Virus genome (UHGV): UHGV-0086334
DNA: 34,222 nt
Origin: a virus
Direction: 5' to 3' (one strand)
The notes below the pieces were generated by a model. The model ran no database searches. It was not told the DNA's origin and worked only from the letters and a program-made list of their open reading frames with translations. Below are positions 4,592 to 34,222 of this stretch, piece by piece. The translations under genes were made by a program, and so were the position numbers. The first letter of the stretch is position 1. Each line of letters begins with the position of its first letter.

Positions 4592-4704
4592 GTGAGTTGA
4601 AAATACGTCGCAAGACAATAGCACGCGTTAAAAATCCATTACCGGCCCCCGCCGAATGCCATTTTTGTGGTGGGAATGTACGGATTGGTACGTATGTATG
4701 GTGA
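4588..4704 (+). CDS. Small hypothetical protein (38 aa, Cys-containing)
   Basis: My reading: ATG 4588 with GGGAGG RBS, translation MSELKIRRKTIARVKNPLPAPAECHFCGGNVRIGTYVW; below ORF-track cutoff. Confidence 0.3.
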   Translation: MSELKIRRKTIARVKNPLPAPAECHFCGGNVRIGTYVW

Positions 4705-4778
4705 TTGCGAAGTGACGTAAAACGAATCGTTGTGGGTGTAATATCGTCAATATCATTGGTTTCCTGGAGGGAAAGGAT

Positions 4779-5000
4779 ATGTTTGGCGATAACCTGGAGT
4801 TACCACGGAACGGGCGGATAGTGCTCTATATTTCAGATTACAAAGTAACCAGGGCTGAGGTGTTGGAACCGGAAAAACATTTGGTCACGTTACCGGACAT
4901 TATTGAGTTGTATAAGCGGGTCGGATATGTGGACTTGCATCGCGATGATGTTCCCGTTGAGTGTATGGAATGTGAACACCGGAGGTTTGAAGTTGATTGA
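4779..5000 (+). CDS. Hypothetical phage protein
   Basis: 73-aa ORF with GGAGGG RBS upstream. Confidence 0.4.
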   Translation: MFGDNLELPRNGRIVLYISDYKVTRAEVLEPEKHLVTLPDIIELYKRVGYVDLHRDDVPVECMECEHRRFEVD

Positions 5001-8312: not shown

Positions 8313-9548
8313 TCAGAATTTCCGTTCTTTCCAGCGTTTAACCAACGCGGCCATGTTCAGCGGCCATAATTTAGGCTCAATCACTTTGCCTTCAAACATC
8401 GCGCCGAGCTCAATACCTGGGGCAAAATGTACGGTCATTGTTTCAGGGTTGACGGCCATCAGCTCTGCGTCTAGTAAGTCGTGTATCGTTGGAGTCAACA
8501 ACAGGCCATTATCAGCGCTAAAATTGCCTGAGGTAGCTGGCTCAATGTGCGCCGCTTGCAATCGTTCGCCGTTCTGCCAGCCAGTCACCGCGCAACGGCC
8601 AGCAAAATTATTCCATACCCATTCAACGAACTGCATATGCGCCGTCGCGTCGCGCTGCTCAACGATGCGCTGCGCGGTTCGGGTACTGTGGAGTTTGACA
8701 GGTTGGCCAAGCGCGGGCGCGGGTTTATCTTCCTCCACGACTACCACTACTTCCTGCGACATGATGATTCGATCATCGGCTACCAGTTCCGGAACAACAT
8801 CGGCCAGCTTCTCGGCTTCTCGGATGATTTGCTTTTCTTCCTGATCATCCAGGTACCGCTGCACCAGTTCAATGGTCGTGGTGGCTTCATGCTGGTGTTT
8901 GTGGATATAAAGCTCAACATCACGACGCTGGCTGGCTGGAATGTGTTTTGCCAGAAAATCCTGTAGGACGCGATTATCCAGCTTTGTCGTAACTTTTGAT
9001 GTCATGCTCACAGAATCATACCGTTTCGGTGTTTCCATCTGCGTTGATTGCAGGCCTGGTAATTCGGTGTTGATTTGAGCGGAAACCTTGCGCGGGATGA
9101 TTGTCGGCGTAAATGCTGGCGTGCTGGCCTGGGACGTGCCACGGCGACGGGCATTCTCCCAAAGGGCTTCTGTTTCAGGGTTTTTGCGTGCGCCTGGCTT
9201 TTGCATAGGCATAGTGCGAATCAGCGCTTCCCAGCCCATATTGACCTTCTGTTTGGCCTCGCGGCGTTTATCGGCCAGCGTAGGTTTTGATGGTCGTTTT
9301 TTGGAGAGCGCTTTCTCTGGTTTTAATTTGATGCCGCGCGATAAACCATTTATCAGTGTTGGATGCACTGATAAGGCTTTGGCCAATTGCAAACCGTTTA
9401 AATTGCTGCCATCTGTATAAGCGTACATAAACAAATCCGCCCAGCCATCATGTTGAGGGGTCATACCCACGCTGGTTAAGGCTGCGCGAATCTCTTTTTT
9501 GCGAGCTTTGTCCAAGTTAAATTTTGGGGTTTTATTTCGCTTAGTCAT
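8313..9548 (-). CDS. HNH-family nuclease domain protein
   Basis: 411 aa; C-terminal CAVTGW-x7-LQAAHIEP-x10-NGLLLTPTIHDLLD matches an HNH-type nuclease core; N-terminal 300 aa basic, unassigned. Confidence 0.6.
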   Translation of the reverse strand: MTKRNKTPKFNLDKARKKEIRAALTSVGMTPQHDGWADLFMYAYTDGSNLNGLQLAKALSVHPTLINGLSRGIKLKPEKALSKKRPSKPTLADKRREAKQKVNMGWEALIRTMPMQKPGARKNPETEALWENARRRGTSQASTPAFTPTIIPRKVSAQINTELPGLQSTQMETPKRYDSVSMTSKVTTKLDNRVLQDFLAKHIPASQRRDVELYIHKHQHEATTTIELVQRYLDDQEEKQIIREAEKLADVVPELVADDRIIMSQEVVVVVEEDKPAPALGQPVKLHSTRTAQRIVEQRDATAHMQFVEWVWNNFAGRCAVTGWQNGERLQAAHIEPATSGNFSADNGLLLTPTIHDLLDAELMAVNPETMTVHFAPGIELGAMFEGKVIEPKLWPLNMAALVKRWKERKF

Positions 9549-9628
9549 TTCAGTTCAGCACACTAATAATGGTAACCATGACCGCAGCAAACACGATCCC
9601 CGAAATATTCATTACTGCCATATATTGG

Positions 9629-10480
<852 letters not shown>

Positions 10481-12463: not shown

Positions 12464-13126
12464 CTATTGTTCTATTTTAATTTTATTTAACGTTATAGGG
12501 GCTGGGTTATAGCTAGGTATATATAATATCTCACTCCCTAGCTTGCGCTCTTTTATATTTACTTCTTTAGCGACAAGGTTACCGTCATACAACCTAATAA
12601 TCACGTAGTCTTTAGATTGATCATGAAAGTAACTAAATTCTTTTTTTAATGACGCTTGTTGTAAACCAATTAAGAAACTAAATGTCATTATGGCAATAAG
12701 GGGAAGGGTTGCAGACCAAATTAAATAACTTGGATTACGTTTATGATTTTTAACAATTTTGTATATAATATAAGTAACTGTTGCTATCGATAAACTTAAA
12801 ACGAAAAAACCACCATATTCAGTCTTATGTCTATAAGACTGAACAATAAAAACAATCATGATAAAAACTGTAACTGCAGTAACTTTAACTGCTTTTACTT
12901 TACTTTCAGGCCATGGAGTAAAAAACATCAACATAACACAAATTATATTAAAAAATAAATATGACATACCCACGAATAAAAATTTAGAATCTAACGTTAT
13001 AAACTCCATAGGATAATCAAAATGATATGCATAGCCATATTCAAATGAAATTGCAGACATATAAGATAGAACAGTTATTGCCAATATTAGCAAGGCTTCC
13101 TTGCTTTTTATAAAGTCAATTATCAT
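12464..13126 (-). CDS. Integral membrane protein (220 aa), AT-rich cassette 2
   Basis: Several hydrophobic helices in N-terminal 150 aa followed by a soluble C-terminal domain. Confidence 0.55.
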   Translation of the reverse strand: MIIDFIKSKEALLILAITVLSYMSAISFEYGYAYHFDYPMEFITLDSKFLFVGMSYLFFNIICVMLMFFTPWPESKVKAVKVTAVTVFIMIVFIVQSYRHKTEYGGFFVLSLSIATVTYIIYKIVKNHKRNPSYLIWSATLPLIAIMTFSFLIGLQQASLKKEFSYFHDQSKDYVIIRLYDGNLVAKEVNIKERKLGSEILYIPSYNPAPITLNKIKIEQ

Positions 13127-14843: not shown

Positions 14844-14893
14844 AACGAATAATAAATTGTGCAAATAATGCAGTTTTATTATTCGAGGTAATT

Positions 14894-15535: not shown

Positions 15536-15578
15536 TGACCATAAACGGTTTAATCCCCTATAAAACCGTTTAATAAAA

Positions 15579-21950: not shown

Positions 21951-22183
21951 TGACCGCGCGCGAGGTTTTAACAGAACGGCTGCTGGAAGCGGAAATCGCT
22001 CTGCACAAATTATTAACGGGTAAATCGACCGTGTCGCTGTCTCACGGCGATTCAGCGGGAAATAACCGGAGCTATCAGTACTCCCAGGCGAGTATTGAAC
22101 AGCTCCGAACGTACATTATCGAGCTGAAATCACAGCTCGGTCTGAGTACGGGACGCCGCCGTCCCGTGGGAGTTCGATTATGA
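21950..22183 (+). CDS. W: Head-tail joining protein, lambda gpW-like
   Basis: 77 aa; LHKLLTGK...YIIELKSQLG...RRRP resembles lambda gpW; gene order A-W-B. Confidence 0.75.
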   Translation: MTAREVLTERLLEAEIALHKLLTGKSTVSLSHGDSAGNNRSYQYSQASIEQLRTYIIELKSQLGLSTGRRRPVGVRL

Positions 22184-23003
22184 CTGCTCCACAGCAGCTG
22201 CTCGGGCCTGACGGTAAAACGCCACTACGCCGTTTTGCGGGGTATAACGGCGGCGGTCCCGGTTTCGGTGGCCAGCTGATTGACTGGAATGCGCCACAGC
22301 AAAGCGCCGATGCGGCACTGCTGCCTAATTTTTATCGCGGTAACGCGCGAGCAGACGATCTCGTTCGCAATAACGGTGTCGCGTCGAACGCCGTGCAGCT
22401 GCACCAGGATCATATTGTCGGCAATCTGTTTAAATTGAGTTATCGCCCTAACTGGCGTTACCTAGGGATATCTCGCGAGGACGCCAGGGCGCTGGCGCGT
22501 GACGTTGAGGTCGCGTGGACTGAATACGCTGAGGACCCTCACTGCACGATTGATATCGAGCGGAAACGGACGTTCACAATGATGATCCGCGAGGGTGTGG
22601 CCACTCACGCGTTTAACGGTGAAACCTGCGTACAACCGGTCTGGGAAAGCAGTACCGGTAGCGTTTTTCGGACGCGATTCAAAATGGTTTCGCCGAAACG
22701 GATTCGAAATCCGGGTTACGCAGCTGACACCCGATTTCGCCGCGCCGGTGTTGATATCGATAAAAATGGAGCCGCAGTGGGCTACTGGATAGCCGAGGAC
22801 ACCTATCCACTCGGTGGAATCGGCAAGTGCCGGCGTATACCAGCGCAGCTCAGCAGCGGCAGACACGCATTCATTCACATATTCGAGCCGCTCGAGGACG
22901 GACAGACCCGCGGAGATAACATTTTCTACAGCGTGATGGAGCGTCTGAAAATGCTCGACACGCTGCAGCAAACACAACTGCAGAGCGCCATTGTGAAGGC
23001 GAT
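22180..23003 (+). pseudogene. B: Portal protein (lambda gpB-like), 5' fragment interrupted by insertion
   Basis: LLGPDGKTPLRRFAGYNGGGPGFGGQL, LLPNFYRGNARADDLVRNNG, KRTFTMMIREGVATHAFNGE, DGQTRGDNIFYSVMERLKMLDTLQQTQLQSAIVKA match lambda gpB; after codon ...VKA the frame reads IYVYHLTVVARIVRQLH and stops at 23055. Confidence 0.85.
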
Positions 23004-23010
23004 TTATGTC
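22996..23010. other. attL core of inserted element
   Basis: AAGGCGATTTATGTC here versus AAGGCGATGTATGCC at 33898..33912 (13 of 15 identical), at the exact points where portal homology breaks and resumes. Confidence 0.6.
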
Positions 23011-23132
23011 TATCATCTCACCGTAGTTGCCCGCATCGTTCGCCAACTCCACTGAAACCCTTGCTGCGTCTGGAATGTCGTTTTCCATGCTTTTGATGAC
23101 CGTTCATCACCCTTCCAGTTTTTCGCGGTTTT

Positions 23133-23185
23133 GTGTATTGCAATGTGTATTGCAAATTGGCGATCGGGATGGGTGTGTATTGCAA
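23133..23185 (+). repeat. Integrase arm-type repeats (attL side)
   Basis: Three copies of TGTGTATTGCAA at 23133, 23144 and 23174, just upstream of the integrase. Confidence 0.55.
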
Positions 23186-23203
23186 ATCTCTTGAGGGCTT
23201 TTA

Positions 23204-24445
23204 ATGGCTATTGAAAACAAACTCAGTGACAAACTGTTAAAGAGTCTTGTCGGAAAACGGCAGGACAAACAAAAAACAATAGCGGATGGGCGCGGGTTGT
23301 CTGTGCGTGTAAGCATGGTTGGGGGGATCAGCTTTGTTTTTTACTATCGTCTTGGTGGCAGGGAATCCCCTCCGGTATGGCTTACACTTGGTCGCTATCC
23401 TGACATGTCTCTTGCAACGGCCAGGCGCATGCGTGATCAGTGCCGTGAATGGCTGGCTGAAAATCTGGACCCCCGCAGGCAAATAAAACTTGCTGCCGAA
23501 AAAACTATGCAACCAGTGACCGTAAGGGATGCGCTGTTTTACTGGTACGACAATCACGCCACAACAGCCAGAAAAGAGCATGAATATTTAATAAAACGAT
23601 TTGAAAAGCATATCTTCCCCTATATCGGTGATATGGCTATAGAACAGTGCAAATTACACACATGGCTTACCGTCTTTGACAGGATCAAAAAAAATGCGCC
23701 TGTTATGTCTGGTGCAATTTTTCTTGATATCAAACAGGCGTTGCGTTTTTGTCGCGTCAGGCAATACATCGCGTGCGATCCCTTTGGAGATATTAACGTA
23801 AGTTATGTCGGGCGCTCATCCGGTATAAGGGATCGCGTTCTTAATATCAATGAAACCGCTGATGTATGGTCTTATGCTTACGGTAATAATTTGCTAACTC
23901 TGTCATCAATATATAACCGAAGAATAATGGTTATCTGCCTGGTGTTTGGTTGCCGACAGCAGGAGGCGAGGCTATCCACTTGGGACGAATGGGATTTAAA
24001 AAACTGGGTATGGACAGTCCCAAAAGAGCACAGCAAAAACAAGGAGGCTATAGTAAGGCCTGTTCCTGACGGAATAAAACAATGGATCGTTAATCTTTAC
24101 GCAGAAACAAAAAATCGCGGTTATGTTGTCGGTTGTGCTTTGCAAAGGGCGACAATAACAGGGGCTGCAAACAGAATATGCAGGCGTCTTGGTCATGATA
24201 CTAATGGCTTGTGGTGCATACATGATTTCAGGCGCACATTTTCCACTACGCTTAATGATATGGGGGCGGATCCTTATATTGTCGAACTTCTTTTAGGTCA
24301 TAAAGTGAAAGGGGTTGCTGGTGTTTACAATAAAAGCAGGCATATAAAGAAAAAACTTGAGGTGCTTAATATGTGGGTTAATTACCTTAATACGATAGCA
24401 GGATTTAACAACAACGTTATCGAGCTTAATAAAGAGGTGGTGTGA
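23204..24445 (+). CDS. int: Tyrosine integrase, P4-type
   Basis: 413 aa; N-terminal LSDKLLKSL...DGRGLSVRVS arm-binding-type domain, catalytic blocks HDFRRTFST and LLGH...VYNK. Confidence 0.9.
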   Translation: MAIENKLSDKLLKSLVGKRQDKQKTIADGRGLSVRVSMVGGISFVFYYRLGGRESPPVWLTLGRYPDMSLATARRMRDQCREWLAENLDPRRQIKLAAEKTMQPVTVRDALFYWYDNHATTARKEHEYLIKRFEKHIFPYIGDMAIEQCKLHTWLTVFDRIKKNAPVMSGAIFLDIKQALRFCRVRQYIACDPFGDINVSYVGRSSGIRDRVLNINETADVWSYAYGNNLLTLSSIYNRRIMVICLVFGCRQQEARLSTWDEWDLKNWVWTVPKEHSKNKEAIVRPVPDGIKQWIVNLYAETKNRGYVVGCALQRATITGAANRICRRLGHDTNGLWCIHDFRRTFSTTLNDMGADPYIVELLLGHKVKGVAGVYNKSRHIKKKLEVLNMWVNYLNTIAGFNNNVIELNKEVV

Positions 24446-24446
24446 T

Positions 24447-24704
24447 ATGGCAATTTATTCTCTTGTTGATGAAAACGATTTGCGCACAATGAAGGACATT
24501 GATCGGTTCATTCGTGAAAAAGAGTGCATAGCACTTACCACGCTGGCAAACTCAACACGCTGGAAAATGGAGCAGGCAGGTAAATTCCCGCGACGTATCA
24601 AGATCGGTGAACGTGCTGCAGGGTATCGACTTTCAGAGGTTCAGGCATGGATCCGTGGTGAGTGGCATCCTGGATGGAAACCTGGAAAAACAAAACAGCA
24701 ATAA
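24447..24704 (+). CDS. AlpA-family DNA-binding regulator/excisionase-like
   Basis: 85 aa; RWKMEQAGKFPRRIKIGERAAGYRLSEVQAWI is the AlpA-type winged HTH; directly follows int. Confidence 0.7.
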   Translation: MAIYSLVDENDLRTMKDIDRFIREKECIALTTLANSTRWKMEQAGKFPRRIKIGERAAGYRLSEVQAWIRGEWHPGWKPGKTKQQ

Positions 24705-24715
24705 CCAGTAAATAA

Positions 24716-24740
24716 TGCCCCTCATCACGAGGGGTTTTTT
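24716..24740 (+). terminator. Intrinsic terminator
   Basis: CCCCTC-atcac-GAGGGG followed by TTTTTT. Confidence 0.6.
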
Positions 24741-24760
24741 GTCTATAAGGTAAAAACGCG

Positions 24761-25339
24761 ATGAATAAAAATATTGCCGTGACGGGCAAGGGGTACGCTC
24801 GTCCAGTGAAAAAATTCTGCGATATTCGTGATCTCGTCGTTCTGCGCTTTGATAGTGTGAACGTTCGTGTGGTGTATCTGAACGGCGATCCGTGGTTTGT
24901 TGCAAAAGATGTTTGTGCTGCGCTGGAACTAACCAATTCGCGTACGGCGTTGCAGATGCTTGATGATGATGAAAAGGGAGTAAATTTAACTTACACCCCA
25001 GGAGGAAATCAGAATATGAGAATTATCTCTGAGTCAGGTTTCTACAAACTAATAGCCCGCAGCCGCAAAGCAACGACGCCTGGCACATTTGCTCATCGTT
25101 TCAGTAACTGGGTATTCAGAAATGTGATACCAGGTATCAGAAAAACGGGGACTTATGGTATCCCGTGGGGTGCATTACAGGATTTTTCCCGCCGTAAAGA
25201 GCAATATCAAATAAGTGCCAGCGAGAAGGGGAGGGAGCTACAGGCATGTAAGCGCAAAAAGCGTGAGCTGGAGGAAGAAGAAAAAACGCTGATACGTGAA
25301 TATCAGCCTGAGTTTTACTTTGGTAACCGCATTCAGTGA
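24761..25339 (+). CDS. Bro-N domain protein (antirepressor-like)
   Basis: 192 aa; DPWFVAKDVCAALEL, ESGFYKLIARSRK, FSNWVF..VIPGIRKTGTYG fit the Bro-N domain. Confidence 0.7.
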   Translation: MNKNIAVTGKGYARPVKKFCDIRDLVVLRFDSVNVRVVYLNGDPWFVAKDVCAALELTNSRTALQMLDDDEKGVNLTYTPGGNQNMRIISESGFYKLIARSRKATTPGTFAHRFSNWVFRNVIPGIRKTGTYGIPWGALQDFSRRKEQYQISASEKGRELQACKRKKRELEEEEKTLIREYQPEFYFGNRIQ

Positions 25340-25348
25340 CAAAACAAA

Positions 25349-25369
25349 GGCGACCGCAAAAGGGTCGCC
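25349..25369. terminator. Stem-loop between convergent genes
   Basis: GGCGACC-gcaaaag-GGTCGCC right after the Bro-N stop; no clear T-tract. Confidence 0.4.
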
Positions 25370-25435
25370 AGTGGGAACAAGGGAAAACAAAAGCATCACC
25401 AACAATGCCACATTTGCGGCTGGTGGGCAATGTGA

Positions 25436-25615
25436 TCAGTCAGATTTGGTTCGTTCCAAGGTTTGCAACGAGAGCTTTTTCCTGTGCTCTTTAAGGAATT
25501 TCTCAAGAGCAAACGAACAAGGTGCGAATCTTTCTGATTCATGTTCATGCGCTATATTTTTGCGTCGTCTCTTACGAGTTGGTGATGGTGTTTTGGTTGA
25601 TTCTGTGTCGCTCAT
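25436..25615 (-). CDS. Small basic hypothetical protein (59 aa)
   Basis: My reading of the minus strand: ATG at 25615, AGGA RBS, MSDTESTKTPSPTRKRRRKNIAHEHESERF...; downstream of the repressor gene on the same strand. Confidence 0.25.
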   Translation of the reverse strand: MSDTESTKTPSPTRKRRRKNIAHEHESERFAPCSFALEKFLKEHRKKLSLQTLERTKSD

Positions 25616-25672
25616 GGTGCTGTCCTGTAAAGCAATGCGCCTGCGTTCCTCAAACTATGGCGCTGATATTGG

Positions 25673-25978
25673 CTATTCATGCTCTTTGACCTTGCGTCGC
25701 TGGAGTTCTTCACGCGCGACGGTGACGAGTTGCCCGATCTCCTCGGCTGCTTTGATGCCGATTTGTTCGACCTTAGCCAGGGCATCCAGTGACGACACAA
25801 GGGGATTTTCTCCGCTGCCTTCTGCTTGGCGGCGGGCTATTTCTCCGCGCATGGCGGTTACGATAAATCCGGCATTGCTTTCACCGTCCAGCTTAACGGA
25901 TTCCATCCCTTGCATAACATCTAGTGGGACTCTGACAGTTGTCAGTTGTGATTTTGCGTTTTTGTTAGCCGTTGCCAT
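25673..25978 (-). CDS. Putative repressor, possibly ribbon-helix-helix
   Basis: 101 aa; strong AGGAG RBS; divergent from the operator-bearing promoter at 26040; TTVRVPLDVMQGMESVKL is compatible with an RHH beta-strand/helix. Confidence 0.45.
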   Translation of the reverse strand: MATANKNAKSQLTTVRVPLDVMQGMESVKLDGESNAGFIVTAMRGEIARRQAEGSGENPLVSSLDALAKVEQIGIKAAEEIGQLVTVAREELQRRKVKEHE

Positions 25979-25999
25979 TTCTGAAACTCCTAATCATCG

Positions 26000-26077
26000 G
26001 TGTGTTTCAGTATACACAAAAAAAGAAATACAAAAAGCCTTGACGTGTGTTTCATGCGCTCATAACATGAAACACAC
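26000..26077. promoter_or_regulatory. Operator/promoter between divergent satellite genes
   Basis: Perfect inverted repeat GTGTGTTTCATG-n9-CATGAAACACAC (26045..26077) overlapping TTGACG -35 (26040..26045); third half-site GTGTGTTTCA at 26000..26009. Confidence 0.55.
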
Positions 26078-26168
26078 CGAAAGGATTGTTGAAATACAAA
26101 GAGCAACGCCCCGCAGTGCTGGGAACACATACGGGGCGTCTAACCAACAACGTAAACTAGGAGCCGTT

Positions 26169-26366
26169 ATGGTTGCTGTAAATCATATACCACACCTTGT
26201 ACACACACAAACGGCCTTTGTGTGGCGTTTTCTGGCACTGAGTGCCGGAGAATCTCAAATCATCCACGTAACCGCCTGGACGGAACGCGAAGCGCGTAGC
26301 CGTTGCCCGTCCGGTTGTGTTGCTGTATTCGCTGCAAAAATCCGCCAGGGAGTGAGTCATGCTTAA
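26169..26366 (+). CDS. Small hypothetical protein (65 aa), first gene of rightward satellite operon
   Basis: ATG 26169 preceded by AGGAG; it is the 3' part of the long ORF 25296..26366, whose upstream part I regard as non-coding. Confidence 0.45.
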   Translation: MVAVNHIPHLVHTQTAFVWRFLALSAGESQIIHVTAWTEREARSRCPSGCVAVFAAKIRQGVSHA

Positions 26367-26544
26367 AACCTTCCGTGTATTTGCCCGAGCTGTTAACCCA
26401 ATAGGCCACACAATTGGTATCGCTCAGAATGTGAAGGCTGTTAATGTTCAGACGGCTATTGCTGCGGTGAGAAGCGAATCATCAGAATATGGCTTATCAC
26501 AAGTCATTATTTCAGCAGTGTATGAATTAAAAGAGGTGCATTAA
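26359..26544 (+). CDS. Small hypothetical protein
   Basis: 61-aa ORF, start overlapping upstream stop. Confidence 0.4.
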   Translation: MLKTFRVFARAVNPIGHTIGIAQNVKAVNVQTAIAAVRSESSEYGLSQVIISAVYELKEVH

Positions 26545-26735
26545 TGCAGGAAATTACATTACACGAAGCCGCTGAACGTGCGCACCAGACAGAAATTATT
26601 TGCCGCCTTCTTGAGGTATACCCGAACAAAATTACAGATGCTGATATATCCGCACTGGCGAGCCTACTGGCGCGTCTTTCGGGAAGTGTCGCTAGTTTTT
26701 TGATTGAGGAAGAAAGTAAGCTGGTGGGGGATTAA
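26544..26735 (+). CDS. Small hypothetical protein
   Basis: 63-aa ORF, ATGA-type overlap. Confidence 0.4.
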   Translation: MQEITLHEAAERAHQTEIICRLLEVYPNKITDADISALASLLARLSGSVASFLIEEESKLVGD

Positions 26736-26957
26736 ATGAATACAGAACGGGAAGTCTTTTTTAAATTGTTAGCATGTGCAGAAAGTTCATTAACTTTAAA
26801 TAATTCAGCAAAAGCAATATTAAATATGTGGCTTGATTGCATAAATGACAATGAAGATGCAAATATTGCTTATGGCCTGTTGTCACTTATTGATGAATCA
26901 GCAGAAAAACTCAATGACGCAATAAATAGTGCCCTGCTATCAAATAAGTCGAGTTAA
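26736..26957 (+). CDS. Small hypothetical protein (AT-rich)
   Basis: 73-aa ORF, markedly more AT-rich than its neighbours. Confidence 0.4.
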   Translation: MNTEREVFFKLLACAESSLTLNNSAKAILNMWLDCINDNEDANIAYGLLSLIDESAEKLNDAINSALLSNKSS

Positions 26958-26974
26958 GTCGAGGAATAAATAAT

Positions 26975-27274
26975 ATGGAAATGAAAAATTCTGGCTTTAT
27001 TGCCAGCGGCCCCGCTCGACCTGAATTTATGAACGGCGATATTTACCGCGATAAATACGGCGGCACGGTAACGATTAAAGGCGTGGCAGAACGGCGCATC
27101 ACTTACCGCCGTGAGGGGTATAGCTATGACTGCGTGATGCCTGTTTATCAGTTCCGGCGTGATTTTTCCCTGGTATATGCCGCACCCCGCAGTAAATCCA
27201 TCAGCAGGGAAAAAGCGTGGGGAAATATCCAGAAAATGAAAACCATGATTAACGGATTCAGAGGTAAAAAATGA
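26975..27274 (+). CDS. Hypothetical protein
   Basis: 99-aa ORF with GAGGAA RBS; stop overlaps primase start. Confidence 0.45.
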   Translation: MEMKNSGFIASGPARPEFMNGDIYRDKYGGTVTIKGVAERRITYRREGYSYDCVMPVYQFRRDFSLVYAAPRSKSISREKAWGNIQKMKTMINGFRGKK

Positions 27275-29025
27275 AACTGGCACCGAACGTAAAACAGCAG
27301 TCACGCGGCATAAAACACAAAGGAACAGAAGTAATTATTTTTGCGGGTAGTGATGCCTGGGCACACGCGAAACAATGGCAGGAACATGATGCGCGTATGG
27401 CCGGAGATAATGAGCCTCCTGTGTGGCTTGGGGAGCAGCAGCTATCCGAACTGGATAATCTGCAAATTGTGCCGGAAGGCCGAAAATCAGCACGCATATA
27501 CAGGGCCGGATATCTTGCGCCTGTAATGATAAAGGCGATTGGTCAGAAGCTGGCGGCAGCAGGCGTACAGGATGCAAATTTTTATCCTGAGGGTATGCAC
27601 GGCCAGGAGGTGCAGAACTGGCGCGAATATCTGGCCCGTGAACGCCAGAATCTTTCTGATGGTCTGGTCATTGAGCTTCCGGTAAAGCAAAAGGCGCAAC
27701 TTTCGCAGATGGCGGACAGTGAGCGCGCGCAGTTGCTTGCCGATCGCTTTGATGGCGTTTGCGTACATCCTGAAAGTGAAATCGTTCACGTATGGCGCGG
27801 CGGGGTATGGTGTCCGGTCAGCACAATGGAACTTAGCCGCGAAATGGTGGCGATCTATTCAGAGCACAGGGCCACTTTCAGCAAGCGCGTAATCAATAAC
27901 GCCGTGGAAGCGTTAAAAGTTATTGCCGAACCAATGGGCGAGCCGTCTGGCGATTTGCTGCCGTTCGCCAATGGTGCGCTTGACCTGAAAACGGGGGAAT
28001 TTTCCCCGCACACGCCGGAGAACTGGATCACCACGCACAACGGCATTGAGTACACGCCACCAGCACCAGGGGAGAACATCCGCGATAACGCGCCAAACTT
28101 TCATAAATGGCTTGAGCACGCAGCCGGAAAAGACCCGCGCAAGATGATGCGTATATGTGCCGCGCTGTACATGATTATGGCGAACCGGTACGACTGGCAG
28201 ATGTTTATTGAGGCCACCGGAGACGGCGGGAGCGGTAAAAGTACATTCACACACATAGCCAGCCTTCTGGCAGGGAAACAGAACACGGTAAGCGCTGAAA
28301 TGACATCGCTTGATGATGCTGGTGGACGTGCGCAGGTTGTCGGGAGTCGTCTTATCGTCCTGGCTGACCAGCCGAAATATACAGGCGAAGGAACGGGCAT
28401 CAAGAAAATCACAGGCGGCGACCCCGTGGAAATTAACCCGAAATATGAAAAGCGTTTCACGGCGGTAATCAGGGCGGTGGTGCTGGCGACCAACAACAAC
28501 CCGATGATATTCACCGAACGGGCCGGAGGTGTGGCACGTCGTCGCGTGATTTTCCGTTTCGACAATATCGTCAGTGAGGCCGAAAAAGACAGGGAGCTAC
28601 CGGAAAAGATTGCGGCTGAAATCCCCGTTATTATCCGCCGATTGCTGGCGAACTTTACCGACCCTGAGAAGGCACGGGCTTTACTACTGGAACAGCGTGA
28701 CGGTGATGAAGCACTGGCAATAAAGCAACAGACGGATCCGGTTATTGAGTTTTGCCAGTTCCTGAATTTTCTGGAGGAAGCGCGCGGCCTGATGATGGGT
28801 GGCGGTGGTGATTCAGTGAAGTACACGACCAGGAACAGCCTTTACCGCGTCTATCTGGCGTTTATGGCATACGCGGGCAGGAGCAAACCGCTAAACGTGG
28901 CTGAGTTCAGCAAGGCCATGAAGCCAGCGGCGAAAGTTTACGGGCATGAATATATTACGCGAAAAGTTAAGGGAGTAACGCAGACCAACGCAATTACAAC
29001 AGACGATTGCGACGCGTTTTTATAA
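27271..29025 (+). CDS. Primase-helicase (P4 alpha / PICI Pri-Rep-like), SF3 helicase domain
   Basis: 584 aa; Walker A GDGGSGKSTF, RLIVLADQ Walker B-like, D5-type C-terminal region; followed by iterons. Confidence 0.85.
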   Translation: MKLAPNVKQQSRGIKHKGTEVIIFAGSDAWAHAKQWQEHDARMAGDNEPPVWLGEQQLSELDNLQIVPEGRKSARIYRAGYLAPVMIKAIGQKLAAAGVQDANFYPEGMHGQEVQNWREYLARERQNLSDGLVIELPVKQKAQLSQMADSERAQLLADRFDGVCVHPESEIVHVWRGGVWCPVSTMELSREMVAIYSEHRATFSKRVINNAVEALKVIAEPMGEPSGDLLPFANGALDLKTGEFSPHTPENWITTHNGIEYTPPAPGENIRDNAPNFHKWLEHAAGKDPRKMMRICAALYMIMANRYDWQMFIEATGDGGSGKSTFTHIASLLAGKQNTVSAEMTSLDDAGGRAQVVGSRLIVLADQPKYTGEGTGIKKITGGDPVEINPKYEKRFTAVIRAVVLATNNNPMIFTERAGGVARRRVIFRFDNIVSEAEKDRELPEKIAAEIPVIIRRLLANFTDPEKARALLLEQRDGDEALAIKQQTDPVIEFCQFLNFLEEARGLMMGGGGDSVKYTTRNSLYRVYLAFMAYAGRSKPLNVAEFSKAMKPAAKVYGHEYITRKVKGVTQTNAITTDDCDAFL

Positions 29026-29040
29026 TTTTTTGTAAAAGCC

Positions 29041-29262
29041 ATCTACCCCATCTACCTGAACGAAATAAACGCATATTATTCAACATGATAAGTGGGTATA
29101 GGGCTAGGTAGAAGGCTAATAAAAGCTCTCTACCTCTTCTACCTGATTTTATCAGTTTCAGGTAGCAGGGTAGACGGCAGGTAGAGGAGTCAAAAAAGCT
29201 ATCTACCCGCTGAAAGCGTCGCCATTACTGACATGATGAGTATTCGGGTAGATGGGTAGAGG
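29041..29262. repeat. Iteron-type replication origin
   Basis: About 12 direct and inverted copies of (A/T)CTACC or GGTAG(A/T) right after the primase-helicase gene. Confidence 0.65.
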
Positions 29263-29313
29263 GGGGGAGGCACAACTAAAAACTTTTTAAACGAGGGGGG
29301 GGGGTGAAAATAA

Positions 29314-29628
29314 ATGCGCATACATAAAAATCACTTAACAAACATGCCAGCCGAAAACATGAATCAGGGGCGACAAATGACCAAAATTCGCAGAGACAGA
29401 ACACAGGCAAAATATAAAGCGTTAGACATGACAGAGCTTTCCTTAAAGGTGGCAATCAAAGCGATAGACCACCACACACGGGCAGGATACGCGAAGGAAC
29501 ATCCCGACCTGATAAGCGCATTTATGACCACAGCAGCGGCAAACTTTGCCACGCTGACAGAACGGGAGATTGCCGAAGCGGAACAGGTGACAACCATCAA
29601 TGTTAAAACCGGAGAGCAGACAGCATGA
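29314..29628 (+). CDS. Hypothetical protein
   Basis: ORF track 104 aa; likelier start ATG 29377 (AGGGG RBS). Confidence 0.45.
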   Translation: MRIHKNHLTNMPAENMNQGRQMTKIRRDRTQAKYKALDMTELSLKVAIKAIDHHTRAGYAKEHPDLISAFMTTAAANFATLTEREIAEAEQVTTINVKTGEQTA

Positions 29629-30047
29629 CAGCACAGATAGCGGCTTACGGGCGGCTGGTGGCTGACCCGCAGTTAAAGACCACCAGCAAAGGGACACAAA
29701 TGGCGATGGCGAGTATGGCGGTTCCCCTGCCGTGCAGCCAGGCAGATGACGGAACGGCGACGATGTGGTTATCCGTCCTGGCGTTTGGCAGACAGGCCGA
29801 CGCACTGGCAAAACACCACAAAGGCGAACTGGTGAGCGTGGCGGGTAACATGCAGGTAAGCCAGTGGACAGGCCAGAACGGCGAAACGCGGCGGGGCTGG
29901 CAGGTTATCGCAGACAGCGTAATCAGTGCGCGAACGGCGCGACCGGGCGGCAAAAAAGGCCAGCAGGGGCAGGCCACTGACGCACTGAACAGGGCAAAAC
30001 AACAGTCGGGGAATGATGATCCGTACGGCGATAATATACCGTTTTAA
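29625..30047 (+). CDS. Single-stranded DNA-binding protein (SSB-like)
   Basis: 140 aa; YGRLVADPQLKTT, TMWLSVLAFGRQA, Gly/Gln-rich linker and acidic tail ending DDPYGDNIPF. Confidence 0.7.
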   Translation: MTAQIAAYGRLVADPQLKTTSKGTQMAMASMAVPLPCSQADDGTATMWLSVLAFGRQADALAKHHKGELVSVAGNMQVSQWTGQNGETRRGWQVIADSVISARTARPGGKKGQQGQATDALNRAKQQSGNDDPYGDNIPF

Positions 30048-30063
30048 ATTCTGCAAACAAAAA

Positions 30064-30092
30064 GATGCCGGAAAAAAATAGATTTTCCGGCA
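30064..30092. terminator. Stem-loop, possible terminator
   Basis: ATGCCGGAAAA-n7-TTTTCCGGCAT inverted repeat after the SSB stop. Confidence 0.45.
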
Positions 30093-30258
30093 TGCTACAT
30101 AAATCCCGACCAAAGGAAGTAAATACATTAACACGAATTATCAGCACTGAAGTTGTTACGGCATATTTTATACAACATTGCACTTGGTTGCATGTGTTCG
30201 CATAGCAGACATCGGTAATAGAATATATTCACAATTATTTGTAATGAATGTAAAGAGG

Positions 30259-31305
30259 ATGAGTATGGTTGATTTATATTCGCCTACACAGCTTGTGCAG
30301 GTGGCTAATGCTGAAGATGTGCAAAAAAAATTAAATGCGTTGTTTACCAGTTTGTTTTTCACTCGCTCGGTAATGTTTGAATCGAGAGACATTATTCTTG
30401 ATACGATCGACGATCCAAATATCCCGATCGCGGCGTTTTGCTCTCCTATGGTGGGCAGTAAAGTTTCACGAGATGAGGGATACGAATCAAAAACAATTCG
30501 TCCAGGTTATATGAAGCCGAAAAGCAGCATTGATCCAAATAAGTTAGCTGTGCGCCCTGCTGGTGTGTCACCTGAGCAATACAATGCTTTTGGGGCGCGT
30601 AATATTAAAGTTAAACAGGCGATTGTAAATCAGGCTAAAGCTATTCGTGCACGTATTGAATGGCTTGCTGTTCAGGCAATCACAACGGGGAAAAATATCA
30701 TTGAGGGCGATGGTATTGAACGTTATGAGCTGGACTGGAATATAAAACCACAAAATATCATCACTCAGTCTGGCGGTACTGAGTGGTCAGGTAAGGATAA
30801 AGAAACTTTTGATCCAAATGATGATATTGAGAGCTACGCAGAATTTAGTGAGGGCGTCACTAATATCATCATTATGGGTGGTAATGTATGGAAGAAATAC
30901 CGTTCATTCAGAGCGATAAAAGAGGCTTTGGATACCCGTCGTGGTTCTAATTCCGAACTGGAAACGGCCCTTAAAGACCTTGGTGATTCGGTGAGTTTTA
31001 AAGGGTATATGGGCGATGTTGCGATTGTTGTTTACAGCGGGCGTTATACCGACGAGGACGGAACAGAAAAACATTTCCTTGATCCTGATTTGATGGTGCT
31101 TGGCAATACGGCTCTTCAGGGGATTGTCGCCTATGGCGGTATTCAGGATCCGGAGCTAATCCGAATGGGGCTGACTAAAGCCGAACTTGCACCGAAAAAC
31201 TATATTGTGCCTGGTGATCCGGCTATTGAATATGTGCAGACACATTCAGCACCACAGCCAATACCGGCCCGCATCAATCGTTTTGTTACCGTTCGCATTG
31301 GCTAA
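30259..31305 (+). CDS. E: Major capsid protein, lambda gpE-like
   Basis: Starts MSM as lambda gpE does; IITQSGGTEWSGKDKETFDPNDDIESYA, FRAIKEALDTRRGSNSELETALKDLG, GDVAIVVYSGRY, MVLGNT match my recollection of lambda gpE. Confidence 0.85.
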   Translation: MSMVDLYSPTQLVQVANAEDVQKKLNALFTSLFFTRSVMFESRDIILDTIDDPNIPIAAFCSPMVGSKVSRDEGYESKTIRPGYMKPKSSIDPNKLAVRPAGVSPEQYNAFGARNIKVKQAIVNQAKAIRARIEWLAVQAITTGKNIIEGDGIERYELDWNIKPQNIITQSGGTEWSGKDKETFDPNDDIESYAEFSEGVTNIIIMGGNVWKKYRSFRAIKEALDTRRGSNSELETALKDLGDSVSFKGYMGDVAIVVYSGRYTDEDGTEKHFLDPDLMVLGNTALQGIVAYGGIQDPELIRMGLTKAELAPKNYIVPGDPAIEYVQTHSAPQPIPARINRFVTVRIG

Positions 31306-31314
31306 GGGGGAGCA

Positions 31315-31656
31315 ATGGCTACTCATTACACTGAACTCATGGCTGGCACTGAAGCACTGGTGACTACGCTGGGGATATTTTCAGCTAATAAAGGGGTAAT
31401 TCCTGCATTTACGCCACTGATGCAGGAAGATGCAACAGGTGCACTGGTGGTATGGGATGGTTCGAGCGTAGGTAAAGCGGTTTATGTTTCCGCTGTACAA
31501 ATCGACACCGCGAAAAAAATACAGGCTCAGGTCTATAAGACAGGTGTCTTAAATGTTGATGCTCTGAACTGGCCTGAGTCTGTTAAAGAACTGTCAGTAA
31601 AGGTTGCAGCGTTTGTTGGCTCAGGTATTTCTGTTCAGCCGCTGGCTCGTGTGTAA
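31315..31656 (+). CDS. D: Capsid decoration protein, lambda gpD-like
   Basis: 113 aa; FTPLM, LVVWDGSSVGKAV, YKTGV, WPES, AAFVGSGISV match lambda gpD blocks. Confidence 0.75.
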   Translation: MATHYTELMAGTEALVTTLGIFSANKGVIPAFTPLMQEDATGALVVWDGSSVGKAVYVSAVQIDTAKKIQAQVYKTGVLNVDALNWPESVKELSVKVAAFVGSGISVQPLARV

Positions 31657-31667
31657 AGGGGGATACA

Positions 31668-32051
31668 ATGCAGAATGATTACAATGACCTTAAGCCAATT
31701 GCCGAAATGATGTACCCGAATCCAGCTGTAGAGGAATTAAAAGCTATCGCTGACAAAATGTGTTTAAGCGAGCGCCTTGTTGATATGAATCAGGTGATGG
31801 AAATTACAACCCTGAGTCGTCGTACACTGCTAAACCTTGAGGCTAGTGGAGAGTTCCCGGAGCGTGTGCAGGTTACGGAAGGGCGTAAGGCCTGGTATTT
31901 AAGTGAAGTGATCGACTGGATAAATAATATTCCTCGCGCTTCTGAATATTGCCGCGTACCTGTCCCAAAAAAGCCAGATGCGGCGCTATGCCTCAAGATT
32001 GAGCGTGTACGCCGCAATGCACGGGATGGTCGCTATAAGCTGATTGGTTGA
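31668..32051 (+). CDS. AlpA-family HTH protein
   Basis: 127 aa; VMEITTLSRRTLLNLEASGEFPERVQVTEGRKAWYLSEVIDWI is an AlpA-type HTH; AGGGGG RBS. Confidence 0.6.
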   Translation: MQNDYNDLKPIAEMMYPNPAVEELKAIADKMCLSERLVDMNQVMEITTLSRRTLLNLEASGEFPERVQVTEGRKAWYLSEVIDWINNIPRASEYCRVPVPKKPDAALCLKIERVRRNARDGRYKLIG

Positions 32052-32074
32052 TGAAATTAGGGCCCGCTCTGGCT

Positions 32075-32135
32075 GGCGGGTCCTTTCCGGTGATCCGGTA
32101 GGCTACGGGGCGGCGACCTCGCGGGTTTTCGCTAT
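32075..32135 (+). other. Lambda-type cos site of the inserted element
   Basis: GGGTCCTTTCCGGTGATCCGGTAGGCTACG then GGGCGGCGACCT (32108..32119) then CGCGGGTTTTCGCTATTTATGA; the 12-mer is the lambda cohesive-end sequence as I recall it, and the flanks match lambda's right and left ends. Confidence 0.75.
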
Positions 32136-32252
32136 TTATGAGCCTTTTTCGGGTGCTGGTGGTGGTTTTGTTGTTCGCTCTATCTCTATGAATAAAAAGG
32201 AAAAGATAAAGCCAATACACCAACCTGAAACATTACTTAAGTGGGGATATTG

Positions 32253-32795
32253 ATGAAATCGCACCTGATGAACAAAAAAAACATGGCGCAAAGCTGCCGT
32301 GTAAGTGCGACAGCGTTCGACAAGTGGGGAGTGACTCCCGTTGAACGTAAAGGCCGCGAGGCGTTTTATGATGTTGCCAGCGTAATAGACAATCGGGTTA
32401 GCAATGCAATTAACCAGATTACAGACGACAAAGGCGAGATTGATGATGATGAACTCCTACGAGTCAGGATCAGATTGCTGACAGCACAGGCAGAGGCGCA
32501 GGAGCTTAAAAACGAGCGCGAACGCGGCGACGTTATTGATACAGCGTTTTGTATATACGTGCTTTCAAAATTGGCGAGTCAGATTTCTTCAATCATGGAC
32601 AGCCTGCCGCTTGCCATGACAAGGAAGTTTCCCGACATGAAGCCGTCTATGCTGGATGGACTGAAAAAAGAAGTTATCAGAGCCTGTAACGCATGCGCAA
32701 AACTTGACGAAAACATACCGCTGATGCTGTCCGATTATCTGATGGAAACTGCCGGAAACGTACCGGATAAGTTGCAGCCGAATAAAGATAAGTAA
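32253..32795 (+). CDS. Nu1: Terminase small subunit, lambda Nu1-like
   Basis: LLTAQAEAQELKNERERGDVIDTAFCIYVLSKLASQISSIMDSLPLAMTRKFPDM...KLDENIPLMLSDYL aligns closely with lambda Nu1 C-terminal half; N-terminus MNKKNMAQ resembles Nu1 MEVNKKQLA; start could be ATG 32268. Confidence 0.8.
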   Translation: MKSHLMNKKNMAQSCRVSATAFDKWGVTPVERKGREAFYDVASVIDNRVSNAINQITDDKGEIDDDELLRVRIRLLTAQAEAQELKNERERGDVIDTAFCIYVLSKLASQISSIMDSLPLAMTRKFPDMKPSMLDGLKKEVIRACNACAKLDENIPLMLSDYLMETAGNVPDKLQPNKDK

Positions 32796-32806
32796 CGTAG
32801 TACGCT

Positions 32807-33088
32807 ATGACTGAATCCGAAATACTGCGATTAATCCGCCGTGCTTGTGGAATCAGCAAGCAGCATGACGAACAGGCCACGCAGCCGGACAGCGTGACCG
32901 CAGATAATTATGTGCGTGTAGTGGCTGAGGTGATGCGCCGTGACGGTATTGAGCTTAACGGCGTGGATATGCGCAACATACGAACAAGAGTCCTTGAGTT
33001 GCTGGCATATCGTCGCCGTTCTCAACAACGGAGGGAGAGCGCGAAAAATACTTACCAGTGGAAGAAGCCGGAACGATTGCGGCGGTAA
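32807..33088 (+). CDS. Hypothetical protein
   Basis: 93-aa ORF, Arg-rich C-terminus. Confidence 0.4.
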   Translation: MTESEILRLIRRACGISKQHDEQATQPDSVTADNYVRVVAEVMRRDGIELNGVDMRNIRTRVLELLAYRRRSQQRRESAKNTYQWKKPERLRR

Positions 33089-33344
33089 CTTGCTGATATT
33101 CCCGATAACGCAAAATTGCGCTGGCTGACTTGTTGCATTGCAAAAAGTTAAGCAGGAAGGCACGGCCTGTAAGATGGGATGCAGTAAGTAGTTCAAGGCT
33201 ACCTTGTGCTGGCACGCACAGTTAAGCCGTCGGTGCTGGATATCCCCCACTGGGGGAAAAGCTGGCTACATCCCTCACATCTGAGGACTGATAACGCGAC
33301 ATTGCGCTGGCTGGCAAAGTGCAAAATTGCACGATGGCCTAACC

Positions 33345-33494
33345 CATTGATTATTTCGAAAACCTGCAATGCAGGAAATCGGGGAAGTAAGCCTAAGCTA
33401 TTGATTGTTTCGAAAACCCCCATTGGGGGATGTCGGGAAAGTAAGACTAACCCATTGATTCTTCCACAATCCTCAATTTGAGGAGGCCGGAACG
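33345..33494 (+). repeat. Three phased 54-bp tandem repeats, each with a central 13-bp palindrome
   Basis: Unit CATTGATT-n-TTCGAAAACC-palindrome-GGGAAGTAAG; palindromes CCTGCAaTGCAGG (33363), CCCCCAtTGGGGG (33417), CCTCAAtTTGAGG (33471) exactly 54 bp apart. Confidence 0.6.
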
Positions 33495-33801
33495 TCTACA
33501 TAGCTGCATCGCCGTAATGATGATTCAGCCCACCAGCCAAATCAGCACAGCAACGACAGAATAGCCCGACACAGAAAAACCACGAATATGGGGTTTTTGT
33601 TATGACATGGTCATGATGACCACTCATACAAAACAGGTAAAGCCCACCAGCCTGATTAAAGGTTAACCGGAAAAAAGCCAGGTATCCAATCTCGATATGG
33701 GGATCCCTATATCGACATTAACGCCCACTAAAACTGTGCATATATGCATAGAAAAAGCATCCACCAGCTTTATGACGGATGCCGCTCATCTTATAAATAA
33801 T

Positions 33802-33824
33802 CGTGTATTGCAGTGTGTATTGCG
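33802..33824 (+). repeat. Integrase arm-type repeats (attR side)
   Basis: CGTGTATTGCA and GTGTGTATTGCG, same motif as the attL-side repeats. Confidence 0.5.
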
Positions 33825-33897
33825 ACTCCTTTAAACGATAGGTCTGAGCATTCGTAATGTACTGTTTTTAAATTTTATTTTTTCCTGTCTTTTCATA

Positions 33898-33912
33898 AAG
33901 GCGATGTATGCC
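33898..33912. other. attR core of inserted element
   Basis: AAGGCGATGTATGCC; portal reading frame resumes here (K-A-M-Y-A-A-T-I-E-S-E-L-D). Confidence 0.6.
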
Positions 33913-34167
33913 GCGACAATCGAATCAGAGCTCGACAGCCAGCAGGCGTTTGAATATATCGCCGGCGCGGGTACTGATATCGACTCGAACCCACTGAATT
34001 CGTTTATTCAGAGTTACGTGACGTACTACAACGGCGCAAACATTAAATTAGGCGGCGTGAAAGTCCCTCACCTGCACCCCGGCGACAAACTCAGTTTACA
34101 GACCGCTCAGAACGCTGACGCTGGTTTCAGTTCGCTGGAAAAATCACTCCTGCGTTACGTTGCCGCT
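33898..34167 (+). pseudogene. B: Portal protein (lambda gpB-like), middle fragment, truncated at its 3' end
   Basis: [44 protein letters not shown] continue the lambda gpB alignment exactly where the 5' fragment stopped; ends at a TAG supplied by the following IS-like sequence. Confidence 0.85.
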
Positions 34168-34222
34168 TAGACTGGCCCCCTGAATCTCCAGACAACCAAT
34201 ATCACTTAAATAAGTGATAGTC
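34168..34222 (+). mobile_element. Terminal ~55 bp of an IS2-like insertion sequence (continues beyond window)
   Basis: TAGACTGGCCCCCTGAATCTCCAGACAACCAATATCACTTAAATAAGTGATAGTC matches my recollection of the IS2 terminus; portal homology ends abruptly here. Confidence 0.65.

Follow-up and report, generated by a model that had tools for sequence, protein, structure and literature searches.

What keeps a phage-inducible chromosomal island (PICI) of Gram-negative bacteria silent in its host? In EcCICFT073, the model element, alpA is turned on by helper phages, and expression of AlpA is enough by itself to bring about excision and replication that depends on the primase; as to a global repressor of Gram-negative PICIs, the picture has been described as unclear (PMC6092414). 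The virus genome UHGV-0086334, a stretch of 34,222 nucleotides (nt) to which we refer as the window and whose coordinates are used throughout, raises this question in concrete form, as it is an Escherichia coli lambdoid prophage hosting a satellite element of about 10.9 kb. In this element, a leftward gene for a 101-amino-acid (aa) protein is divergent from a rightward operon that leads to the primase, and the original prediction, made from the letters of the DNA, was that the two flank a maintenance and induction switch made up of a small repressor and a three-site palindromic operator. On the basis of the analyses described below, we consider it likely that the 101-aa protein is an Arc/Mnt-type ribbon-helix-helix (RHH) repressor of a Gram-negative PICI that would repress the rightward promoter (PR) and regulate its own leftward promoter (PL). 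The features of the predicted switch are as follows.

25673-25978, minus strand: leftward gene coding for the 101-aa protein
25987-25991, minus strand: Shine-Dalgarno sequence AGGAG of the repressor gene (CTCCT on the plus strand), 8 nt before the ATG
25997-26009, plus strand: site S1, TCGGTGTGTTTCA, reaching from the leftward -10 into the leftward start region
26009-26014, minus strand: probable -10 of PL, TATACT, suggested by a conserved alignment block
26024-26032, minus strand: degenerate site S2, AGAAATACA on the plus strand and TGTATTTCT on the minus strand, with 2 mismatches, over the PL -35 region
26040-26068, plus strand: PR, with TTGACG (26040-26045), a 17-nt spacer and TAACAT (26063-26068), from a promoter scan
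26045-26077, plus strand: operator OR, comprising sites S3 and S4, GTGTGTTTCATG-n9-CATGAAACACAC, overlying PR between the -35 edge and about +1
26090-26098, plus strand: possible site S5, TGAAATACA, with 1 mismatch, in phase with the other sites

The arms of OR (26045-26056 and 26066-26077) are complementary at 12 of 12 positions across a 9-nt spacer, and the -35 of PR, the only sigma-70-like site found by a scan of 25200-26600, abuts the left arm and overlaps it, as had been predicted, the overlap being 1 nt; its -10 straddles the spacer and the beginning of the right arm. At thresholds of 12 nt or more for the arms and 20 nt or less for the loop, OR is the sole perfect inverted repeat of the window; dinucleotide shuffles yield a mean of 0.05 such repeats per window and any at all in only 13 of 300 cases. 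The third half-site that had been noted in the leader of the leftward gene is likewise there: all 13 nt of S1 agree with the reverse complement of 26068-26080, a segment made up of the right arm and its flank, and S1 is invariant in the alignment of 12 loci whose protein has an N-terminal strand of the same type (see below). With up to one mismatch, the 11-mer GGTGTGTTTCA is found at these three positions and nowhere else in the window (0.63 occurrences expected by chance; three copies reached in 4 of 100 shuffles). The count of three sites did not hold up, in that an unbiased search for repeated 9-mers added S2 and S5. A GAAATACAAAAA block at S2 is conserved in the alignment, and its equivalent is a good copy in three related loci (L013, L017 and L007), while the position of S5 is not kept as a site in the Xenorhabdus loci. 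In all, there are three good sites, one degenerate site and one possible site, phased at 22 to 23 bp and alternating in orientation, and they overlap the -35 and -10 of PR and the -10 and +1 of PL; in Xenorhabdus and Photorhabdus, the probable -10 of PL has the sequence TATAAT. The predicted operator thus comprises four phased sites, or perhaps five, spread across two promoters placed back to back.

The 101-aa protein belongs to a narrow family (36 clusters at 50% identity among 1.84 billion proteins) and is recovered by the NCBIfam model NF041551, YlcI_YnfO_N, with 63.3 bits against a cutoff of 30 (E value of 1.6e-17; residues 9 to 50), in agreement with its RefSeq name, YlcI/YnfO family protein. 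A literature search on the function of this family returned no paper. No Pfam family scores over its threshold for this protein (the best being PF07704 with 16 bits against 28.3 and DUF5610 with 16 against 26.4), and neither the Arc family (PF03869) nor the other Pfam RHH families reach their gathering thresholds. The original prediction had allowed for an RHH-type protein, and structure prediction bears this out. The AlphaFold2 model (pLDDT of 81.8) has an extended N terminus, helices at residues 19 to 28 and 35 to 54 and a long helix at residues 59 to 100; a strand-helix-helix unit of the customary length of about 45 residues is present, so that an RHH domain is predicted at about residues 9 to 54, followed by the C-terminal helix. 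The turn between the two helices, G32-E33-S34-N35, fits the G-x-S/T/N pattern. The N-terminal strand, Q11-L-T-T-V-R16-V-P18, alternates outward-facing polar residues, aligns with Arc in the R-x-P register and includes an arginine (R16) and a proline (P18) that are invariant across 27 homologues. Pairwise profile alignments with hhalign are in the expected register and below significance (E values of 0.004 to Arc and 0.05 to Mnt). Foldseek found no meaningful match in the PDB; the model is of an isolated RHH monomer with a long helix, which as drawn is not compact. Profile searches of PDB sequences retrieved a weak Hef/XPF helix-hairpin-helix-like match for residues 57 to 101 (SLDALAKVEQIGIKAAEEI; E value of 0.0036), and I73-G74 in this part are invariant, while AlphaFold2 draws one continuous helix there; the C-terminal part may be an oligomerization helix or a hairpin. 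The gene is under purifying selection (dN/dS of 0.09 to 0.23). No match to the protein was obtained by tblastn in 50,697 phage records, and PADLOC matched none of the switch proteins.

To place these observations in a comparative setting, we used 18 related loci (given by L numbers where they need to be told apart) from about ten genera, among them Escherichia, Citrobacter, Klebsiella, Enterobacter, Serratia, Erwinia, Xenorhabdus and Photorhabdus. The layout is common to all 18, with four sites phased at 22 to 23 bp, located about -98, -76, -54 and -31 relative to the repressor ATG, and in some cases a fifth. The -35 of the rightward promoter abuts the -76 site (S3 in the window) and has the sequence TTGAC in 17 of the 19 sequences, the window included (TTAAC in L005 and TTGAA in L017), and a leftward -10 of the form TATAMT abuts the -31 site. 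The loci whose protein has a QLTTVRVP or QLFTVRVP strand keep GTGTGTTTCA exactly. The palindrome, whose absence from homologous elements had been named in advance as grounds for giving up the switch, is thus retained: the OR arms are identical even where synonymous sites are saturated (dS of >2), while the spacer between them varies freely.

Across the loci compared, the inner bases of the sites vary with the type of strand. QLTTV and QLFTV strands go with GTTTCA sites, KQISI (the type of L013) with GATTCA, QSLTA with AAGaCA, QMIST with AGTC, QQLNA with TGGTATTCA, Q-x-KN-x with GTATTTA or GTACA, QAIAA with AAACA and QALKA, the strand of EcCICFT073, with GGCCCAC. An identity matrix across the loci indicates that the type of site follows only the N-terminal domain of the 101-aa protein and not AlpA, the Icd-like protein, the integrase, the primase or its own C-terminal half. 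The Xenorhabdus, Photorhabdus and Citrobacter loci, which have the operator of the window, encode N-terminal domains 76 to 87% identical to that of the window, with primases that are unrelated or only about half identical; a Serratia locus (L010) with a QLFTV strand and the same operator has an N-terminal domain 64% identical. Conversely, L015 and L017 have a C-terminal domain 87 to 91% identical to that of the window, yet their operator differs.

This pattern bears directly on the possibility that the repeats are the sites of AlpA or of another satellite regulator, such as the BRO-N or Icd-like protein, and that the 101-aa protein is unrelated to them. AlpA is an experimentally demonstrated activator of EcCICFT073 genes (PMC6092414), and PHROGs labels relatives of the BRO-N protein as antirepressors and those of the Icd-like protein as transcriptional repressors. 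However, the sites of the Xenorhabdus, Photorhabdus and Citrobacter loci are identical to those of the window, despite an AlpA that is only 29 to 34% identical or undetected and with no Icd-like or BRO-N homologue detected in these loci; L015 and L017, with an Icd-like protein 80% identical, have different sites; and the overlap of the sites with core promoter elements suits repression rather than activation. We accordingly regard a binder other than the 101-aa protein as quite unlikely.

The same comparison speaks against a reading of the phased repeats as replication origin iterons, or as a centromere-like site, bound by the primase/initiator or a ParG-like protein. Four to five repeats at 22 to 23 bp with A/T-rich spacers do resemble iteron arrays, and the replication module adjoins them. 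Yet the primase of EcCICFT073 is 98% identical to that of the window and its repeats are different, whereas the repeats of the window are also present in loci whose replication proteins are of the DUF927, Toprim or AAA_25 type. Further, the repeats alternate in orientation, and the annotation of the element includes no ParA-type ATPase, which leaves the origin or centromere reading with hardly any probability. The origin of PICIs is reported to lie near pri-rep (PMC10111431).

The association of protein and palindrome also extends to a broader set of sequences. In 2.9 million viral contigs, the palindrome pattern has 47 exact matches, all in the context of a TTGAC promoter, and a KSQLTTVRVP protein is encoded beside it in all 46 of the contigs with enough readable upstream sequence. 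No copy of the operator was found in the helper prophage sequence of the window. Since all 47 copies in viral contigs are likewise in the switch context, the suggestion in the original prediction that the half-site might mediate cross-regulation of helper phage genes is not supported by these sequences. A further aspect of the comparison is the mosaic nature of the repressor: relative to L013, L015 and L017, the C-terminal half is 87 to 93% identical to these E. coli relatives and the N-terminal half only 56 to 71%, and L042 combines the same N-terminal domain and operator with another C-terminal domain. This mosaic suggests that the N-terminal domain and the operator are exchanged as a unit, and they appear to have been swapped together as a cassette.

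From these sequence features we infer how binding, repression, autoregulation, oligomerization and release might proceed in the switch. Dimers of the 101-aa protein would insert their N-terminal strands (about residues 11 to 17, QLTTVRV) into the major groove at sites of the consensus GGTGT-GTTTCA. As the spacing of 22 to 23 bp amounts to two helical turns, the sites would lie on the same face of the DNA, and the long C-terminal helix would probably link dimers into higher oligomers; spacing and helix together suggest cooperative oligomers. Occupation of the two perfect sites of OR would occlude PR and silence the genes for the Icd-like protein, DUF4222, the primase and the single-stranded DNA-binding protein (SSB), and probably those for the capsid and the small terminase subunit as well. 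S1, a good site, and S2, a weak one, flank the promoter of the repressor gene itself and might confer negative autoregulation at higher concentrations of the protein. The most likely route of derepression would be rightward transcription from int-alpA-BRO-N that runs antisense through the repressor gene into the operon; such transcription would be activated by AlpA and, in the embedded copy, would also come from the late operon of the helper (PMC10111431). Alternatively, an antirepressor might act on the C-terminal helix.

Several observations weigh against this proposal. The covariation was drawn from linked cassettes in related elements, and the loci are not independent samples. The -35 of PL is weak, and PL was not called by the promoter scan. 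Each 10-nt site might be taken by a monomer strand pair or by a dimer. AlpA alone induces EcCICFT073, and the authors of that study found no repressor (PMC6092414); induction therefore probably enters upstream of, or over, the 101-aa repressor, and the protein may not be the decisive control point. Of the two roles originally proposed for the repressor-operator pair, maintenance is well supported by conservation, covariation and predicted fold; the other, induction, is unproven, and as published work assigns the inducing role to AlpA, we can do no more than conjecture it here.

The element in which the predicted switch lies has the following genes, with the Icd-like gene and orf59 taken up below.

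23204-24445, rightward: int
24447-24704, rightward: alpA (Pfam AlpA)
24761-25339: BRO-N gene (Pfam Bro-N)
26359-26957: three small open reading frames (ORFs)
26975-27274: DUF4222 gene (Pfam)
27271-29025: D5_N primase gene (Pfam D5_N)
29625-30047: SSB gene
30178-31656: major capsid and decoration genes
31668-32051: second AlpA-like gene (127 aa; phrog_2790 at 1e-49)
32241-32795: small terminase subunit gene

Starting with the Icd-like ORF (26169-26366), the rightward genes extend to the primase, as had been anticipated. An identical element with the same gene order is found in NZ_CP006834.2, where it splits the prophage portal gene, and on this ground the element is a Gram-negative PICI of the helper-embedded type (HE-PICI). 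In the window, the N-terminal part of the portal gene extends to near 23010 and its C-terminal part starts from near 33890 (22180-23055 and 33904-34222), and the satellite is co-oriented with the gene that it interrupts. The helper-embedded configuration has been published, with portal gene sites among the listed site classes (PMC10111431), and the layout of a satellite embedded in the portal gene is hence not new.

Relatives of the switch occur in satellites elsewhere (L014, at 4664-4939 of that locus; L013; L015), one of them beside a truncated Phage_cap_E gene, a further helper-embedded site, and others at chromosomal sites; some of these satellites have DUF927, Toprim primase or AAA_25 replication modules or a protease-capsid fusion gene. 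The second AlpA-like gene, located between the decoration and small terminase genes, may code for a regulator of the late operon. Just 3' of ssb and 5' of the capsid gene is a perfect 11-nt inverted repeat, ATGCCGGAAAA-n7-TTTTCCGGCAT (30065-30093), which could act as a regulatory site or form a terminator-like boundary where the replication zone gives way to the late zone. Further perfect inverted repeats of 10 to 11 nt are seen in the prophage part at 12818-12843, 14846-14885 and 15542-15572.

Downstream of PR, the transcript has a conserved leader that the original prediction had missed.

26106-26139, plus strand: leader hairpin 1, with an outer stem ACGCCCCG/CGGGGCGT and an inner stem, both showing compensatory changes
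26139-26146, plus strand: single-stranded linker UCUAACCA, near-invariant in 17 loci and occurring once in the window
26149-26168, plus strand: leader hairpin 2, with pair changes and with the Shine-Dalgarno sequence AGGAG of the Icd-like gene (26159-26163) in or next to its loop
26169-26366, plus strand: Icd-like gene (65 aa), the first of the rightward operon (NCBIfam NF033153 at 1.2e-17; RefSeq annotation)

In an alignment of the leader from 17 loci, 94% of the cells are paired, compared to 27 to 39% when the partners are slid. Compensatory changes are seen in 9 of the 13 pairs, and the observed covariation is reached by no shuffle. Hairpin 2 has changes on both sides in four of its five pairs, the stem in the window itself being short; folding of the window leader as a single sequence also yields hairpin 1, the z-score of -1.0 being modest. 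The conserved two-hairpin leader probably adds a layer of posttranscriptional control to the first gene of the operon.

It could be asked whether these hairpins are the real switch and the protein only a minor player, with immunity being chiefly RNA based as in phage P1 (c4-icd-ant) or P4 (CI RNA). The strong covariation of both hairpins and the Icd-like nature of the first gene, as in P1 immI, would fit such a mechanism, and hits to C4 or isrK have been reported in some PICIs (PMC10111431). Nevertheless, a permissive Rfam search (E value of up to 1; 22500-34222) found no match, C4 and isrK (RF01695 and RF01394) included; blastn of the leader against the 50,697 phage records found no similar DNA; and no conserved complementarity was found between the hairpin loop and the ribosome-binding region. 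Moreover, immunity of this kind leaves the covariation of the DNA sites with the protein strand unexplained, and we consider it improbable as the chief mechanism.

The repressor gene is followed on the leftward transcript by the small basic ORF that had been noted, and the transcript has a predicted end.

25436-25615, minus strand: orf59, leftward (from the ORF list)
25349-25369, minus strand: intrinsic terminator of the repressor and orf59 transcript, GGCGACC-loop-GGTCGCC followed by a T-run, from a terminator scan; it sits between the end of orf59 (25436) and that of the BRO-N gene (25339)

The product of orf59 has 59 aa with an RKRRRK motif, matches phrog_21027 (5e-15) and shows a dN/dS of 0.23 against the EcCICFT073 copy; the gene is apparently cotranscribed with that of the repressor. 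It was found only in loci of the E. coli lineage (the window, L015, L017, L018 and CFT073), and 14 of the 20 loci surveyed lack it, which marks it as an accessory gene of that lineage only. We asked whether its arginine-rich product might be an RNA-binding partner for the leader hairpin; as a general feature this was rejected, since most of the hairpin-bearing loci have no orf59. The phyletic pattern is equally pertinent to the notion that the leftward operon is a type II toxin-antitoxin or addiction module, in which the RHH protein would be the antitoxin and the orf59 product the toxin, with the repeats being purely autoregulatory. A cognate toxin gene conserved directly downstream, the hallmark of a type II antitoxin, is lacking, given that orf59 is missing in the majority of loci where the protein and its sites are retained; neither protein matches PADLOC or Pfam toxin families; and the perfect sites are over the divergent promoter of the replication operon rather than that of the protein itself. 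A toxin-antitoxin module thus seems very unlikely.

Among known systems, the closest parallel to the proposed RHH repressor is the immI region of phage P22, where the RHH repressors Mnt and Arc act on operators over the divergent Pant and Pmnt promoters, and where Mnt has a C-terminal helical oligomerization domain. Shared with immI are the small RHH repressor divergent from an operon, the symmetric operators over core promoters and the implied autoregulation, and the long predicted C-terminal helix recalls Mnt as the R-x-P strand recalls Arc. In contrast, four to five sites spaced by 22 to 23 bp are seen here, as against two adjacent half-sites in about 21 bp in P22, and the operon controlled would be that for replication and late functions rather than an antirepressor gene. 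In gene arrangement and presumed role, the locus resembles those of Stl of the staphylococcal pathogenicity islands (SaPIs) and of Rpr of Gram-positive PICIs, which are, to our knowledge, not RHH proteins. There too a leftward repressor gene is placed between the integrase side and a rightward replication and packaging operon with a divergent promoter (PMC6092414). Derepression of Stl and Rpr by helper proteins is experimentally established, whereas the route of release proposed here is conjectural; also unlike those systems, int and alpA are rightward here, and AlpA is a known activator. TraM of F-like plasmids and the omega and CopG repressors have other contexts, namely, the conjugation relaxosome and plasmid copy number or partition control, with no detectable sequence similarity. 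The device as predicted is an ordinary Arc/Mnt-like switch, in a place where none had been described.

EcCICFT073 and the HE-PICIs share the gene order of the present element: int, alpA, the Bro zone, leftward YlcI/YnfO and orf59, Icd-like, DUF4222, primase, SSB, capsid and decoration. The EcCICFT073 protein (QALKARVP) consists of a 59-aa RHH domain without the C-terminal helix, and its sites are direct repeats of a near-palindrome, GTGGGCCAC, as opposed to the inverted repeat seen here; in this locus (L020), the 59-aa gene (9474-9653) lies opposite two copies of GGTGTGGCCCAC in direct orientation, spaced by 22 bp, that overlie a TTGACG promoter (9690-9760). The element also carries the orf59 and Icd-like genes of the window. 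Text searches of PMC6092414 and PMC10111431 found no mention of the YlcI/YnfO protein or its sites. As the CFT073 locus tags of the YlcI/YnfO and Icd-like genes (C_RS30120 and C_RS30125) are out of series, we infer that these genes were annotated later and not considered in PMC6092414.

Outside the satellites, YlcI (DLP12) and YnfO (Qin) of E. coli K-12 and a homologue in an APEC O2-211 prophage share the NF041551 N-terminal domain family and the strand and turn motifs. Their divergence puts them out of reach of tblastn, and their genes lie upstream of terminase genes rather than in a divergent switch. The APEC O2-211 copy, in a lambdoid prophage (L001, 5608-5841), is a 77-aa protein with the strand RNIRFP and the turn GSGNFS, encoded upstream of nohD, from which it appears that helpers can encode distant relatives of the repressor domain of the satellite. 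We looked for such a gene of the prophage itself in the window, where it is absent; the lysis-to-terminase region differs from that of APEC O2-211. Literature searches for DUF3950, for Icd-like proteins and for RHH proteins in connection with PICIs returned nothing relevant.

More broadly, position and covariation allow us to put forward, as a tentative proposal that may well prove wrong in part or as a whole, that a YlcI/YnfO-type RHH protein is the missing master repressor of Gram-negative PICIs, equivalent to Stl. Its N-terminal domain and operator would form a cassette with at least eight immunity types; the C-terminal helix would be the surface on which a helper- or satellite-encoded antirepressor brings about release, an AlpA-controlled BRO-N/Ant-like protein being one candidate; and the covarying leader would constitute a second, new layer of immunity before the Icd-like gene. 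The published model of the Gram-negative PICIs has an activator, AlpA, and an unclear repressor (PMC6092414), and the present locus supplies a concrete candidate repressor with defined predicted sites, which is found also in the model element EcCICFT073, in elements resembling capsid-forming PICIs (cf-PICIs) and in helper-embedded satellites across Enterobacterales. It amounts to a first functional hypothesis for the uncharacterized YlcI/YnfO family. The pairs of strands and sites offer a natural specificity series for DNA recognition by RHH proteins, in which QLTTV/GTTTCA and KQISI/GATTCA differ by one base in the site, and the immunity types could explain which satellites coexist in one cell.

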